Origin: an uncultured Candidatus Saccharibacteria bacterium
GTDB taxonomy: Bacteria > Patescibacteriota > Minisyncoccia > Phycocordibacterales > UBA12088
Reading direction: 5' to 3'
Length of the DNA stretch: 25,157 nucleotides
Assembly (NCBI GenBank): GCA_964507945.1
Contig: CAZDRD010000001.1
Coordinates: 1-25,157 of the forward strand
Position numbers and translations under genes: made by a program. The notes under the pieces were generated by a model, which did no database searches, was not told the origin of the DNA, and saw only the letters and a list, made by a program, of their open reading frames with translations. Positions within the stretch are counted from its first letter, which is position 1, and every line of letters starts with the position of its first letter. Shown here one piece after another: positions 3,507-7,836 of the stretch.

Positions 3507-5687
3507 ATGTTATCTTATCGGTCCATTTTTTCGATCTTCATACTTTTTGTGTTATCTCTTGCGGTCGTGATACCGGCGATATCACGTGCTGCTTCCACCT
3601 GTAGTGACAGTTATTCATCATCGGTTGCCGTCCCCACCGGTTACGGTGCCGCATACAACCCCTTTTCTTCGGCAAAGGAACTCTTAGTCAAAACCACATC
3701 CTGTACTGACACCAGTGCCAGTATTACGGTGGGCAATGGCGACACTGCCCTGTATGTGTACAAGGAAGGTTACTACTGGACCGGTAGTGCATGGCAGAAG
3801 ATCAACTTCACGAGCAGTAATGCACTGGATGGTGTGTGGTATAAAGGGCAAGCCAACGCATCGGTACCCATGGCAGCAGGTAACAGTGAGCGCTTTTATG
3901 TGGGCTATACCTGCCAACAGGTCAGCAGTGTCTGGAAGTGTGGCTGCAGCAATACCACCTGTGCCACACCGGCATGGCAGTTGCAGAAGGTAAATAAGAT
4001 CTCGACTGCCGTTGATCCGACGGCAACCTTCAGCGCTAATCCGACTTCGATCACCGCATCGGGCAACTCCACCCTGACCTGGACTTCCACCAATACCACT
4101 GGTTGTACCGGCAATGGCTTTTCCACCGGCGGTAACACCTCAGGTAGCGTCACCGTCTCTCCTACCAACACGACGACCTATACGTTGACGTGTATCAATA
4201 TGGCGCAGAGCGTTACCAAGAGCGTGACCGTCACCGTCGGTTCTTCTGGCCCGGTCTGTGGCAATGGTATCTGTGAGGCTGGTGAGACCACCGCCAGCTG
4301 CTCATCGGACTGCAGGCCTGCGGGCAGTGCGAACATCATCATCAACTACGCGAGTGCGGCGAGTATGGGGACACTTAATCATGTAGCGGCAGGACTTCTG
4401 CATGGGCTTGAGGATGCACTCAGCAACAAGATCTCCCCTGCTTCGCTGTGGACCGACCTTTCTATGAACTTCCTTCGTACACGACCTGGAACAGTCGCGC
4501 GAGTATATACGGAAGACAAGCGCCTACGTGGCGGGTCGACGGATGTCGCTATGGTCATTACTCTCTCAGGCAGCTGGGGATACGCGACCAACCCGAGCGT
4601 CACGCCTCCATGGGGAAACAACTACAACGCTCCCGATTACAGCGCATGGCTTAACTATGTGGTGACGCAGGTCAATCAGATGAAAACCGCTGTTCCCGAC
4701 GCCAACAAACGCATCTATGACCTTTGGAATGAGCCGAACGGGGAATATTGGTGGAAGACACCTGCAAGTGAAGCGTCAACGTATTCACACTTCAAGGAAA
4801 TGTATCGCCTCACCTACAAATTGCTCAAAGAAGGTCTTCCCGGGTACAACGGCGGCGTTGCACTTGACCCGACTGCACGCTTCACTGCACCAGGTACGTC
4901 AGTCGGGCTCAACAACCTCAACGAGACGTTTACGACTGACTTCATGAAATATGCCAAAGACAATAACGTTGTACCTGATCTGTGGAACTGGCACTTTGGC
5001 GATCCGAAGACGCTCGAACGGTTCAATACGTACATGAACTATGCTGCGTCGATCGGTGCCGCACGCGATGCGATGGTACTCGAATACTTGCGCGAGAACG
5101 ATGGCAAGCGCCCCGGCCGTGCAGCGTATGAAATCGCATTGCTTGAGTCAGCGACGCATGCAGGTTCTGGTAAAAAAATCATCGGCGCTACGGATGCAGA
5201 CTGGCCTTCGACTGGCGAGGCAGGAAACGGCTTATTCTACAGCGGCGGTACCTGGCGCAAGCATGGCATATGGTACATCTTTGCCAACTACGCCAAAATG
5301 AGCGGAGCGGAAGCACCTTTTACCAGCGTCACCACATCGCCTAAGATCGGTGCAGTCGCTTCCATCAACTCCAGCAGTCAAAAAGCATGGGCGCTCTTAG
5401 GCAACGACGTCTTCGATCAACGGTGGAGCCCCAGTGACACCGCAACCGTCGGCAATACGACCATCCGCCTTGACGGTATCCGTTCCGCAGATTCAAGTAA
5501 CAAAGTCAATGTGACGGTCAGTCGTATCCCCTACAAAAATTTCGGTGAAGTGAACGACAGCGACATCACGAAGGTGATCAACAACGCGGAGTACACCGTA
5601 ACGGACAATAGTATTTCGGTGGCTATTCCGTGGGGACTAGGCGTGGATGGATATTTCATGGAAGTGAGTAACGTCATCCCCCGTTAG
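3507..5687 (+). CDS. Secreted modular protein: Cys-containing N-terminal domain, Ig/PKD-like repeat, Cys-rich motif, GH39-like (clan GH-A) glycoside hydrolase domain
   Basis: Signal peptide (hydrophobic stretch to ISRA); TATFSANPTSIT..STLTWTS Ig-like unit; CGNGICEAGETTASCSSDC; WNEPN (E409 acid/base) and VLEY (E526 candidate nucleophile); C-terminal beta-sandwich-like region. Confidence 0.7.
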   Translation: MLSYRSIFSIFILFVLSLAVVIPAISRAASTCSDSYSSSVAVPTGYGAAYNPFSSAKELLVKTTSCTDTSASITVGNGDTALYVYKEGYYWTGSAWQKINFTSSNALDGVWYKGQANASVPMAAGNSERFYVGYTCQQVSSVWKCGCSNTTCATPAWQLQKVNKISTAVDPTATFSANPTSITASGNSTLTWTSTNTTGCTGNGFSTGGNTSGSVTVSPTNTTTYTLTCINMAQSVTKSVTVTVGSSGPVCGNGICEAGETTASCSSDCRPAGSANIIINYASAASMGTLNHVAAGLLHGLEDALSNKISPASLWTDLSMNFLRTRPGTVARVYTEDKRLRGGSTDVAMVITLSGSWGYATNPSVTPPWGNNYNAPDYSAWLNYVVTQVNQMKTAVPDANKRIYDLWNEPNGEYWWKTPASEASTYSHFKEMYRLTYKLLKEGLPGYNGGVALDPTARFTAPGTSVGLNNLNETFTTDFMKYAKDNNVVPDLWNWHFGDPKTLERFNTYMNYAASIGAARDAMVLEYLRENDGKRPGRAAYEIALLESATHAGSGKKIIGATDADWPSTGEAGNGLFYSGGTWRKHGIWYIFANYAKMSGAEAPFTSVTTSPKIGAVASINSSSQKAWALLGNDVFDQRWSPSDTATVGNTTIRLDGIRSADSSNKVNVTVSRIPYKNFGEVNDSDITKVINNAEYTVTDNSISVAIPWGLGVDGYFMEVSNVIPR

Positions 5688-5706: not shown

Positions 5707-5740
5707 ACAACAGCTCCCCTTGGGGGAGCTGTTGTTGTTT
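5707..5740. terminator. Bidirectional intrinsic terminator between convergent genes
   Basis: 13-bp perfect stem ACAACAGCTCCCC / GGGGAGCTGTTGT with TTG loop, T-rich 3' flank. Confidence 0.8.
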
Positions 5741-5752
5741 GTATGGCGATTA

Positions 5753-6199
5753 TTATTTCTTCTCTGCTTTTTTCTCCTGACATTTGGGACAACGGCAGCC
5801 ATATGGCTTTATGTGTTCATCCCAATACTCACGGCCATAATCATACGAAAGCTCTTCACCTTCTTTGATAGCACGTCGCGACAAGATAAATACCCTGCCC
5901 TGGTGAATTTCCGGTTCGCAGTTGGGCCTGCACGAATGATTGATGTACCGCGCGGTATTGGTACGTGCCGTACCGTCTATCGTTTTGCGCGCATTGATCT
6001 CGAAAAGATATTTGCTGCGGCTGGTATGATGTTCCTCTTTGGAAATGACCCGACCGACATACTCGATGATGCACGCTCCTTTGGGTATGGGCTCGCCCGC
6101 AAAGAGTCCCAGGCCCGCGCTTGAACGTTTTACCAAAAGACGATACCCGCCCGGTTCGAATTTCTTTTTTCTTGTTTTTGTTACTGTTTTTTCTTTCAT
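5753..6199 (-). CDS. SET domain protein-lysine N-methyltransferase
   Basis: GLGLFA (motif I), IIEYVG, RYINHSCRPN (motif III), ELSYDYG (motif IV), post-SET CRCPKC. Confidence 0.93.
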   Translation of the reverse strand: MKEKTVTKTRKKKFEPGGYRLLVKRSSAGLGLFAGEPIPKGACIIEYVGRVISKEEHHTSRSKYLFEINARKTIDGTARTNTARYINHSCRPNCEPEIHQGRVFILSRRAIKEGEELSYDYGREYWDEHIKPYGCRCPKCQEKKAEKK

Positions 6200-6254
6200 A
6201 AAAAAATATAGTACCCTACAATGCCTTGCGACACCAGTATGTTATGCTCTAGAG

Positions 6255-6878
6255 ATGTGGGGACTTACCGCAGCAGAACTCCGCGTGTTCAGAAAATTGA
6301 CGACACCGATCAAGATACAAGATTTTCTCGACACATTTCCCATCAATTGGGAGAAGGATGGCGAGACGTATTTTTCGCCGCGAAAGGTGCTGCGGGAACA
6401 AAAGATGCATTGTTTTGAAGGCGCACTTCTTGCCGCCACGGCACTGTGGCTTTCGAACAAGCCGCCGCTTATCCTCGACCTCAAGGCGCCTGGCGACATC
6501 GATCATGTCGTCACGCTTTACAAAATGAACGGCTATTGGGGCGCGATCAGCAAGACCAACCATGCCGTGCTTCGCTTTCGCGATCCGGTATACAAGACCC
6601 TGCGCGAACTTGCCCTCTCATACTTTCATGAGTATTTCGACAATGCGACGGGCAAAAAGATGCTGCGTTCGTATTCGAAACCTCTCAACCTCAAACGGTT
6701 CGGGACGGCATGGATCACTGCCGAAGAAGACTTGGATTTCTTGGCCGAAGCGCTCGATGCATCTACGCATTTTCAAATTTTTCCCAAGGAAAACAGAAGG
6801 TATGTGCGAAAAGCCGACTCGATGGAGCGGCGAGCCGGAGAACTCATCGAATGGCACGAGCGTGATCCACGAACGTAA
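6255..6878 (+). CDS. Vasohibin-like / transglutaminase-fold cysteine protease (putative)
   Basis: 207 aa from ATG 6255 (extended -10 TGtTATGCT 6 nt upstream; the 6039 start overlaps the SET gene); HCFEGALLA (C53), DHVV (H84), WGAISKTN..L..RDPVYKTLRELALSY resemble the vasohibin core recalled from memory. Confidence 0.65.
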   Translation: MWGLTAAELRVFRKLTTPIKIQDFLDTFPINWEKDGETYFSPRKVLREQKMHCFEGALLAATALWLSNKPPLILDLKAPGDIDHVVTLYKMNGYWGAISKTNHAVLRFRDPVYKTLRELALSYFHEYFDNATGKKMLRSYSKPLNLKRFGTAWITAEEDLDFLAEALDASTHFQIFPKENRRYVRKADSMERRAGELIEWHERDPRT

Positions 6879-6930: not shown

Positions 6931-7836
6931 ATGCGTCCCATATATTTCTTTTATGCGCTTTCGTTTGGTTTGCTGATCGCATTTGCGGGGCTCGGTTTTG
7001 GCGTCTACAAATACCGCGAGCTCGCCGCCGCACACCAGGAACTCGTGACAGCGTACCTCGGCAGTCAAACCACCGCCAACGAACGGTTTGCCGCACTTGA
7101 AGAAAAGGTGGGCATCGCGGTCAATGAAAATCAGGAGTTGTCAGCGAGCCTAGAGGAGCAGAGTAACAAAAACGAAGCGCTTCAGGAAAAATTGCAGGGT
7201 AAGCTTGAGGACATATCCGGCACCGTGGGCGATCTGGAAAAACTCTCGAAGACCGATCCCGAGATCTTGAAAAAATATTCAAAGATCTTTTTCCTCAACG
7301 AACACTACGAGCCGGATCGCCTCGTACAAATTCCCAATGACTATGTTTATAACGACAACCGCGTCGAGCGCATCTCGGCTCCGGTATGGCCATACTTGCA
7401 AAACCTCCTCAAAGCGGCAGAAAAAGACGGCGTCAAGCTCTATGTGAAATCCGCTTTCCGCTCCTTCGAGGAACAGCGCAACACCAAATCATCGTACACG
7501 GTCACGTACGGTGCCGGGACCGCAAATACCTTTTCCGCAGACCAAGGCTACAGCGAACATCAACTGGGCACCGCGGTCGATTTCATCACGACGGGCCTTA
7601 GCGGGCAACTTGATGGCTTCGATACGACGGCAGCATACACATGGCTTCAGGAAAATGCCTATCGATACGGTTTCGTACTTTCCTATCCTCAAGGCAACCA
7701 ATACTATATCTTCGAGCCGTGGCACTGGCGGTTTGTCGGCGATGCACTTGCTCGAGATCTACATCGCAAGAGTCAAAACTTTTACGATATGGATCAGCGC
7801 GATATCGACGCCTATCTTATCAAGGTGTTTGACTGA
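6931..7836 (+). CDS. Membrane-anchored D-Ala-D-Ala carboxypeptidase, VanY/M15B family, with coiled-coil stalk
   Basis: N-terminal TM helix, heptad-rich segment, SAFRS..EQ, SEHQLGTAVD (SxHxxGxAxD zinc motif), EPWHWRFVG. Confidence 0.88.
   Translation: MRPIYFFYALSFGLLIAFAGLGFGVYKYRELAAAHQELVTAYLGSQTTANERFAALEEKVGIAVNENQELSASLEEQSNKNEALQEKLQGKLEDISGTVGDLEKLSKTDPEILKKYSKIFFLNEHYEPDRLVQIPNDYVYNDNRVERISAPVWPYLQNLLKAAEKDGVKLYVKSAFRSFEEQRNTKSSYTVTYGAGTANTFSADQGYSEHQLGTAVDFITTGLSGQLDGFDTTAAYTWLQENAYRYGFVLSYPQGNQYYIFEPWHWRFVGDALARDLHRKSQNFYDMDQRDIDAYLIKVFD

Follow-up and report, generated by a model that had tools for sequence, protein, structure and literature searches.

The window analysed here is the whole stretch of 25,157 nucleotides (nt) from contig CAZDRD010000001.1 of an uncultured Candidatus Saccharibacteria bacterium. 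Positions 5753-6878 of the window hold two genes and the short spacer from which they diverge, one for a SET-domain protein lysine methyltransferase (SET) and the other for a cysteine protease of the CPR-C4 family. An initial annotation, made from the sequence alone, had proposed that these two genes form a paired protein-modification module. We find that SET and CPR-C4 are linked far above chance in related genomes, yet not always. Both enzyme families were already known and the new element is their pairing; as the initial annotation had supposed, no description of it was found in the literature searched. The locus is made up of the following elements, with protein lengths in amino acids (aa).

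5753-6199, minus strand: SET-domain protein lysine methyltransferase gene, monocistronic, 148 aa (Pfam, PDB matches, conserved motifs)
6200-6254, no strand: divergent spacer of 55 nt with two back-to-back -10-like elements (sequence; orthologous loci)
6208-6213, minus strand: -10-like hexamer TACTAT, 8 nt upstream of the SET ATG at 6199-6197 (sequence reading)
6240-6248, plus strand: extended -10-like element TGtTATGCT (hexamer TATGCT, 6243-6248), 6 nt upstream of the CPR-C4 ATG at 6255 (sequence reading)
6255-6878, plus strand: CPR-C4 family cysteine protease gene (vasohibin-like, transglutaminase-fold), 207 aa (PDB match, AlphaFold2 model, catalytic triad)

The minus-strand gene was recognized from the outset as encoding a SET methyltransferase, and database searches bear this out. 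Its product matches Pfam PF00856 over residues 29-122 with an expectation value (E) of 2.6e-24 and a score of 86.1 bits against a cut-off of 22.4. The best solved relatives in a PDB search are the SET domains of KMT2C/D (E 5e-21), and EHMT and EZH2 were found as well. The motifs G29-L-G31, N87-H88-S89-C90 and E116..Y119-D120-Y121 (EELxYDY) are invariant or nearly so, both in a set of 16 and in a set of 48 orthologues. A candidate post-SET cysteine cluster, C135-x-C137-x-x-C140, is also present, with tighter spacing than the canonical CxCxxxxC; C135 does not vary, C137 reaches a conservation of at least 90%, and one subclade replaces the motif. Both termini of the protein carry variable, Lys-rich tails (MKEKTVTKTRKKK... 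and ...QEKKAEKK). At E <0.001 the orthologous group numbers over 4,000 database proteins, mainly patescibacterial, and no publication dealing with SET proteins of the Candidate Phyla Radiation came up in the literature searched. Reading of the N-termini of SET and CPR-C4 revealed neither a signal peptide nor a secretion motif, so that both proteins, judged by their sequences, are probably cytoplasmic. Membership of a defence system or a phage was considered and set aside: neither protein has a PADLOC match, and the PHROG matches are marginal and concern SET only.

The product of the plus-strand gene has no family match in Pfam (E up to 1) or NCBIfam. When the PDB was searched with phmmer, the protein matched the CPR-C4 entries 7ob6, 7ob7 and 7pjo (E 1.8e-59), residues 4-204 aligning with residues 23-230 of 7ob6_A at 51% identity. 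These are the crystal structures 7OB6, 7OB7 and 7PJO of an enzyme of thermophilic metagenome origin, which showed protease activity on labelled casein (Cornish et al., J Biol Chem 2022, PMC9108980). According to the same report, CPR-C4 forms a homodimer, has no SVBP-binding helices and bears a positive charge in its pocket, opposite to that of vasohibin (PMC9108980). By analogy, such a pocket suggests that the substrate may be acidic. The window protein has in common with the published enzyme the Cys-His-Leu(carbonyl) triad, the three aspartates of the Zn site and the approximate length. Residues C53, H84 and L106 align with the published triad C61, H93 and L115, and D75, D83 and D168 with the Zn-site residues D83, D92 and D182. 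C53 and H84 are invariant in 56 CPR-C4 homologues, and a further homologue alignment shows these two residues and the three aspartates all invariant. The two proteins differ in their surroundings, as the published gene has ABC transporter genes for neighbours, whereas the window gene and many of its relatives lie next to a SET gene. A second paper citing CPR-C4 added nothing on gene context.

The AlphaFold2 model of the window protein has a predicted local distance difference test score (pLDDT) of 92.7. In a Foldseek search with this model the closest structure was 7pjo, with a template modelling (TM) score of 0.90 and a root-mean-square deviation of 1.5 Å. Next came VASH1/2 chains at ranks 6-28 (E 2e-6 to 1.6e-4, TM 0.45-0.52, identity 13-16%), and third was LapG (PDB 4FGP; E 4e-4, TM ~0.42-0.46, identity 12%). 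VASH1 and VASH2, which act with SVBP as tubulin tyrosine carboxypeptidases (6J4U, 6J8F), have the transglutaminase-like core and the unusual triad in common with CPR-C4, but the low identity separates them, and tubulin is absent from these bacteria. LapG is a bacterial transglutaminase-like cysteine proteinase, periplasmic and calcium-dependent, that cleaves the adhesin LapA. It thus illustrates that a bacterial protease of the CPR-C4 fold can be highly specific for a single substrate, though LapG has no link to SET. Taken on alignment and model, the window protein is a member of the CPR-C4 family that is predicted to be vasohibin-like in its fold and catalytic chemistry, not in its sequence family. 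The earlier label of vasohibin-like protease can therefore be kept for the fold and the triad, where Foldseek retrieves VASH1/2; it does not extend to the vasohibin sequence family, given the absence of a Pfam match and the 13-16% identity.

Only one long CPR-C4 homologue was found, P0122 (389 aa), on an ENA contig of 2.4 kb. CPR-C4 makes up its residues 1-201; a prepilin-type N-terminal methylation motif comes next, at 208-232, and then a T2SS-G-like part. This protein is probably the product of read-through from CPR-C4 into a downstream pilin gene and not a true fusion.

The head-to-head arrangement and the 55 nt that separate the two ATGs, both noted initially, agree with the coordinates of the open reading frames (ORFs). 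The two -10-like hexamers, also noted initially, are present in the sequence and have counterparts in orthologous loci. Neither hexamer was listed by a generic sigma-70 scan, because the scan demands a -35 element. The sole site that it listed was TTCATA-16-TACAAT at 6195-6222 (plus strand), and promoter-like sites in the region were no commoner than in shuffled sequence. Comparison of loci was more informative. TAnnnT lies 6-8 nt upstream of the CPR-C4 start in all 14 divergent orthologous loci, and when all CPR-C4 loci with a secure start were considered, 24 of 59 had TAnnnT at a gap of 6-7 nt, against a background of ~1-2 per other offset. On the SET side, GGTACT(A/G)T recurs in several orthologous loci. 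For 12 of the 14 divergent loci, the length of the spacer itself falls between 40 and 70 nt. The comparison of loci favours both hexamers better than the generic promoter scan does. With a hexamer 6-8 nt before the ATG, each transcript is probably leaderless or nearly so.

One locus, from Vogelbacteria, departs from this spacing: at L032:1110-1280 the spacer is ~170 nt and contains a long perfect inverted repeat, cccggcggaggccgggatcc ... ggatcccggcctccgccggg, perhaps an inserted element or else a hairpin with a regulatory role.

To describe the neighbourhood of CPR-C4 we took a census of 80 loci from species-representative genomes (81 with the window). A close SET orthologue lies within ~1.5 kb in 17 of the 80, head to head in 13 and downstream on the same strand in 4. 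With the window included, SET is the commonest neighbour family of CPR-C4 (18/81 loci; 14 divergent, 4 tandem or downstream). It is followed by a Pif1-like helicase cluster, ~1.6 kb downstream (16/81), and by the VanY-type carboxypeptidase VanY (7/81). The flanks of the pair are mostly ORFs unique to each locus. In the reverse census, which comprised 80 SET-centred loci from JGI metagenomes, CPR-C4 is the top neighbour of SET. It lies within 3 kb in 17 of these loci, invariably 5' of SET (7 divergent, 10 tandem). Four tandem metagenome loci have a gap of 31-108 nt between CPR-C4 and SET, which suggests that CPR-C4>SET is co-transcribed in such loci.

The adjacency occurs in five or more GTDB families of the order to which the window belongs, and also in lineages named Vogelbacteria, Moranbacteria and Paceibacterota. 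When 34 pairs were concatenated, the resulting tree contained one well-supported tandem clade, and one extra tandem locus (L046) fell within the divergent group; a single inversion of CPR-C4 would convert the divergent form to the tandem form. Among the 34 linked pairs the SET and CPR-C4 distances correlate (r 0.71; Mantel 0/2000), and the lowest identities are 40% for SET and 46% for CPR-C4. Contigs of equal size carry the closest relatives of both proteins. The expectation that the adjacency would hold above chance beyond this genome is thus confirmed, by its recurrence in several families and by neighbour censuses in both directions; it is not local to this genome, and the two genes are positively associated across genomes. 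Prediction of a complex between SET and CPR-C4, from alignments of 48 and 56 rows, gave a score of 0.00, which has no bearing either way.

The two genes are also associated at the level of whole genomes. In an even sample of 400 Patescibacteria species, CPR-C4 is present in 33, any SET in 75, and both in 14; they are adjacent in 1 genome only and ~6 kb apart in two genomes of one genus. High-scoring SETs occur in 7 of the 33 CPR-C4 genomes versus 8 of the 367 others (odds ratio 12). A second sample was an even draw of 200 genomes from the window's own order, which has more than 100 families, with a SET orthologue defined by E <=1e-29. Here CPR-C4 is present in 45 genomes, a SET orthologue in 43 and both in 21, so that 21/45 (47%) of the CPR-C4 genomes have the orthologue versus 22/155 (14%) of the others (odds ratio 5.3). 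In these 21 genomes the genes are immediate neighbours in 4, from 4 families (3 divergent, 1 tandem), lie 4-7 kb apart in 3 and are unlinked in 14. The binomial chance of at least 4 immediate neighbours among 21 is 4e-7 under random placement, a value that ignores shared ancestry.

Outside the Patescibacteria, CPR-C4 was found in 28 of 151 genomes of Chthoniobacterales (Verrucomicrobiota), on large contigs, so that the family extends beyond the Candidate Phyla Radiation. A P0001-like SET is present in 27 of these 28 genomes versus 16 of the 123 without CPR-C4 (odds ratio 180). The genomes of this order that carry both families measure 2-4 Mb. Their CPR-C4 proteins (G422 and 27 others; for example L040:10001-10627 and L189-L207) form two monophyletic clades with 57-60% and 43-49% identity to the window protein, and their neighbours are not conserved among the Verrucomicrobia CPR-C4 loci. 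Co-transfer of the two genes into the Verrucomicrobia was considered and rejected. The SETs of this group fall outside the Patescibacteria SET clade, and although one CPR-C4 clade falls inside the patescibacterial diversity, it does so with a support of only 80-91, so that joint transfer is unsupported.

A third gene accompanies the pair in several lineages. Together with a hairpin on the other side of SET, it completes the elements of the window that are used below.

5707-5735, no strand: hairpin with a 13-bp stem, between the end of a convergent 726-aa gene (5687) and the end of SET (5753); likely a two-way terminator
6931-7836, plus strand: VanY-type D-Ala-D-Ala carboxypeptidase gene, 52 nt downstream of CPR-C4 (Pfam PF02557, E 2e-33)

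VanY follows CPR-C4 in the window and in L034, L020 and L060, and it lies near SET in 10 of the 80 metagenome loci. Its product is membrane-anchored, and the SET<CPR-C4>VanY> trio is seen in several distant lineages (the window; L034, L020, L060, L083-L085, L087); in L084 VanY lies near SET where CPR-C4 is missing. VanY is probably part of an ancestral SET<CPR-C4>VanY> block.

The interpretation that we favour, and hold only tentatively, is a loose functional coupling in which SET and CPR-C4 act on a shared endogenous substrate in the cytoplasm, each being able to act alone. Two intact cytoplasmic protein-modifying enzymes would be transcribed outward from the 55-nt spacer, each from its own -10 element. 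The genes would have been adjacent ancestrally in a large clade of Patescibacteria and would have kept that adjacency in many lineages amid reshuffled surroundings, while one clade would have passed to the tandem CPR-C4>SET arrangement, in which they are probably co-transcribed. We infer co-regulation, a shared substrate and an order of reactions in which lysine methylation by SET may mark or protect a protein that is cleaved by CPR-C4. An endogenous, non-histone substrate of a prokaryotic SET protein has a precedent in Go1-SET of Methanosarcina mazei, which acts on MC1-alpha (PMC3980110). Go1-SET is similar in size to the window SET and has in common with it the minimal SET core and the GxG, NHSC and ELxYDY motifs.

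A number of observations weigh against this interpretation. Immediate adjacency is a minority state, found in 1 of 33 CPR-C4 genomes in the phylum sample and in 4 of 45 in the order sample, and a SET orthologue is lacking from about half of the CPR-C4 genomes. Among 11 pairs of same-family genomes that differ in CPR-C4, tallied by hand, SET was unchanged in 9, changed the same way in 1 and changed the opposite way in 1, and in four families SET varies while CPR-C4 is constant. At shallow depth, then, the two genes are not gained or lost together. Within the family of the window itself, genome G337 has SET alone in a different context, and G708 has both genes on separate contigs. The genes are never linked in the Chthoniobacterales, where two CPR-C4 clades match two SET clades, so that the association in this order may rest on about two clade-level events. 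What is more, the Fisher and binomial values overstate significance, as the genomes are related and not independent. No SET-CPR-C4 fusion was found among the longer proteins searched. Finally, the presence of VanY in the same recurrent block means that part of the adjacency signal is ancestral synteny. Since the genes are gained or lost singly within families, the pair is facultative. Of the paired module first proposed, the recurrent adjacency and the genome-wide association stand, but obligate pairing does not, most CPR-C4 genes having no adjoining SET.

Several of these points are what would be expected if SET and CPR-C4 were simply former neighbours in a SET<CPR-C4>VanY> block, drifting apart and unrelated in function, with a co-occurrence that reflects a shared lineage distribution. 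This is the main rival explanation and a serious one, although we consider it doubtful. In its favour, only ~20% of the genomes with both genes in the order sample retain the adjacency, the arrangement is structured by clade (one large tandem clade plus L046), and VanY accompanies the pair in several lineages and remains by SET without CPR-C4 in L084. The independent turnover of the two genes within families, as well as the lack of linkage in the Chthoniobacterales and the position of the SETs of that order outside the Patescibacteria SET clade, point the same way. Mere synteny accounts less well for the unequal retention of neighbours. SET is kept 2.5 times more often than VanY, the next close neighbour (18 versus 7 loci), while the other flanks are nearly all different, and the pair persists down to protein identities of 40-46%. 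It also survived the change from the divergent to the tandem form, with gaps of 31-108 nt that suggest an operon, and the two genes co-occur in two phyla.

One enzyme could instead act on the other, SET methylating CPR-C4 so as to tune the protease, or CPR-C4 trimming the Lys-rich tail at the N- or C-terminus of SET and so switching SET on or off; the pair would then be a self-contained regulatory couple and would need no third protein as substrate. Conserved divergent gene pairs often couple a regulator to its target, the tails at both ends of SET are variable and rich in Lys, and the two proteins co-diverge. We nevertheless regard this as improbable, because the published CPR-C4 pocket is positively charged and would favour an acidic substrate over a Lys-rich tail, and because each gene frequently occurs without the other. 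Less probable still, and in our opinion very unlikely, is that the pair are host-directed effectors of an episymbiont, methylating and cleaving a host-cell protein much as the Legionella and Chlamydia SET effectors act on host histones. A life attached to host cells is assumed for Patescibacteria. Most of the known bacterial SET proteins whose roles are defined are secreted effectors (PMC3980110, PMC2904774). There is also a weak NCBIfam likeness of the window SET to the Legionella effector AnkI/LegAS4, at 37 bits far below the cut-off of 550. The window SET has the minimal SET core in common with Chlamydia NUE and Legionella RomA/LegAS4, but it lacks their ankyrin and secretion parts. Neither N-terminus has a readable export signal, no secretion-system genes lie beside the pair in the neighbourhoods examined, and both families are found on large contigs in Chthoniobacterales genomes of free-living size. 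A host protein, which the initial annotation had named as one of the possible targets, is therefore unlikely.

Coupled protease and methyltransferase systems are known in the prepilin peptidase PilD and in eukaryotic CaaX processing, where Rce1 acts first and then Icmt. The common logic is that dedicated enzymes, either encoded together or acting one after the other, both cleave and methylate one protein. The enzyme families are unrelated, however, and the chemistry differs: PilD and Rce1/Icmt methylate the new N-terminal amine or C-terminal carboxyl that results from cleavage, whereas SET targets lysine side chains. Consequently no cleavage-dependent chemistry is implied for SET, unlike for PilD or Rce1/Icmt. 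A bolder reading would cast SET as writer and CPR-C4 as trimmer in a prokaryotic 'tail code', in which lysine methylation and C-terminal processing act on a cytoplasmic protein that is conserved and has an acidic tail at its C-terminus, such as FtsZ, SSB or a ribosomal protein. It would be a bacterial counterpart, and possibly a forerunner, of tubulin methylation and detyrosination. We consider this reading a long shot.

CPR-C4 ranks among the most conserved of those Candidate Phyla Radiation proteins that have no known role, and its gene neighbourhood, with the ABC transporter genes, gave its discoverers no functional clue (PMC9108980). The recurrent SET partner is the first, still loose, contextual clue to what CPR-C4 works with, and it narrows the search for the CPR-C4 substrate to lysine-methylated cytoplasmic proteins. 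The presence of both families in the Chthoniobacterales, an order with cultivated members, suggests a route through genetics that is closed to the uncultivated Patescibacteria. The facultative nature of the coupling limits the value of the clue.

One CPR-C4 copy, at G771:C6:49942-50526, contains seven in-frame stops (1 TGA, 6 TAA) and is an apparent pseudogene, which fits a frequent loss of this gene.

On the other side of the pair in the window, the hairpin at 5707-5735 is likely a two-way terminator that closes the SET unit. Beyond it, the 726-aa ORF at 3507-5687 (plus strand) converges on SET. The ORF matches no Pfam family; its product has an N-terminal hydrophobic segment as well as Cys-rich and Thr/Ser-rich stretches, and by these features would probably be a secreted or surface protein.

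In 9 of the 80 metagenome loci (L088, L089, L091, L096 and 5 more), the 3' end of SET faces a convergent gene of the flavin amine oxidase family. The idea that this gene might form a writer-eraser couple with SET was abandoned, as its solved relatives are phytoene/carotene desaturases (CrtI-like) and not LSD1-type demethylases. The other recurrent neighbours of CPR-C4 present no coherent theme (Pif1-like helicase, GIY-YIG, an ArfB-like RF-1 domain, PD-(D/E)XK nuclease, P-type ATPase, GSDH-like).

Two kinds of insertion were seen beside SET. A GH18 (chitinase-like) gene lies between CPR-C4 and SET at L085:3791-4969 (plus strand), and in L084, the locus without CPR-C4, such a gene lies between VanY and SET (3714-4952, plus strand). 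In part of the tandem clade, a CofE-like gene (F420-0:gamma-glutamyl ligase, PF01996, E ~1e-10) lies between CPR-C4 and SET on the opposite strand; this insertion was found in 4 genome loci and 8 metagenome loci, for example L029:4873-5646 (minus strand) and L132:4267-4986 (minus strand). The combination of a glutamyl-ligase-like enzyme with an adjoining protease whose pocket would suit acidic substrates may merit attention.

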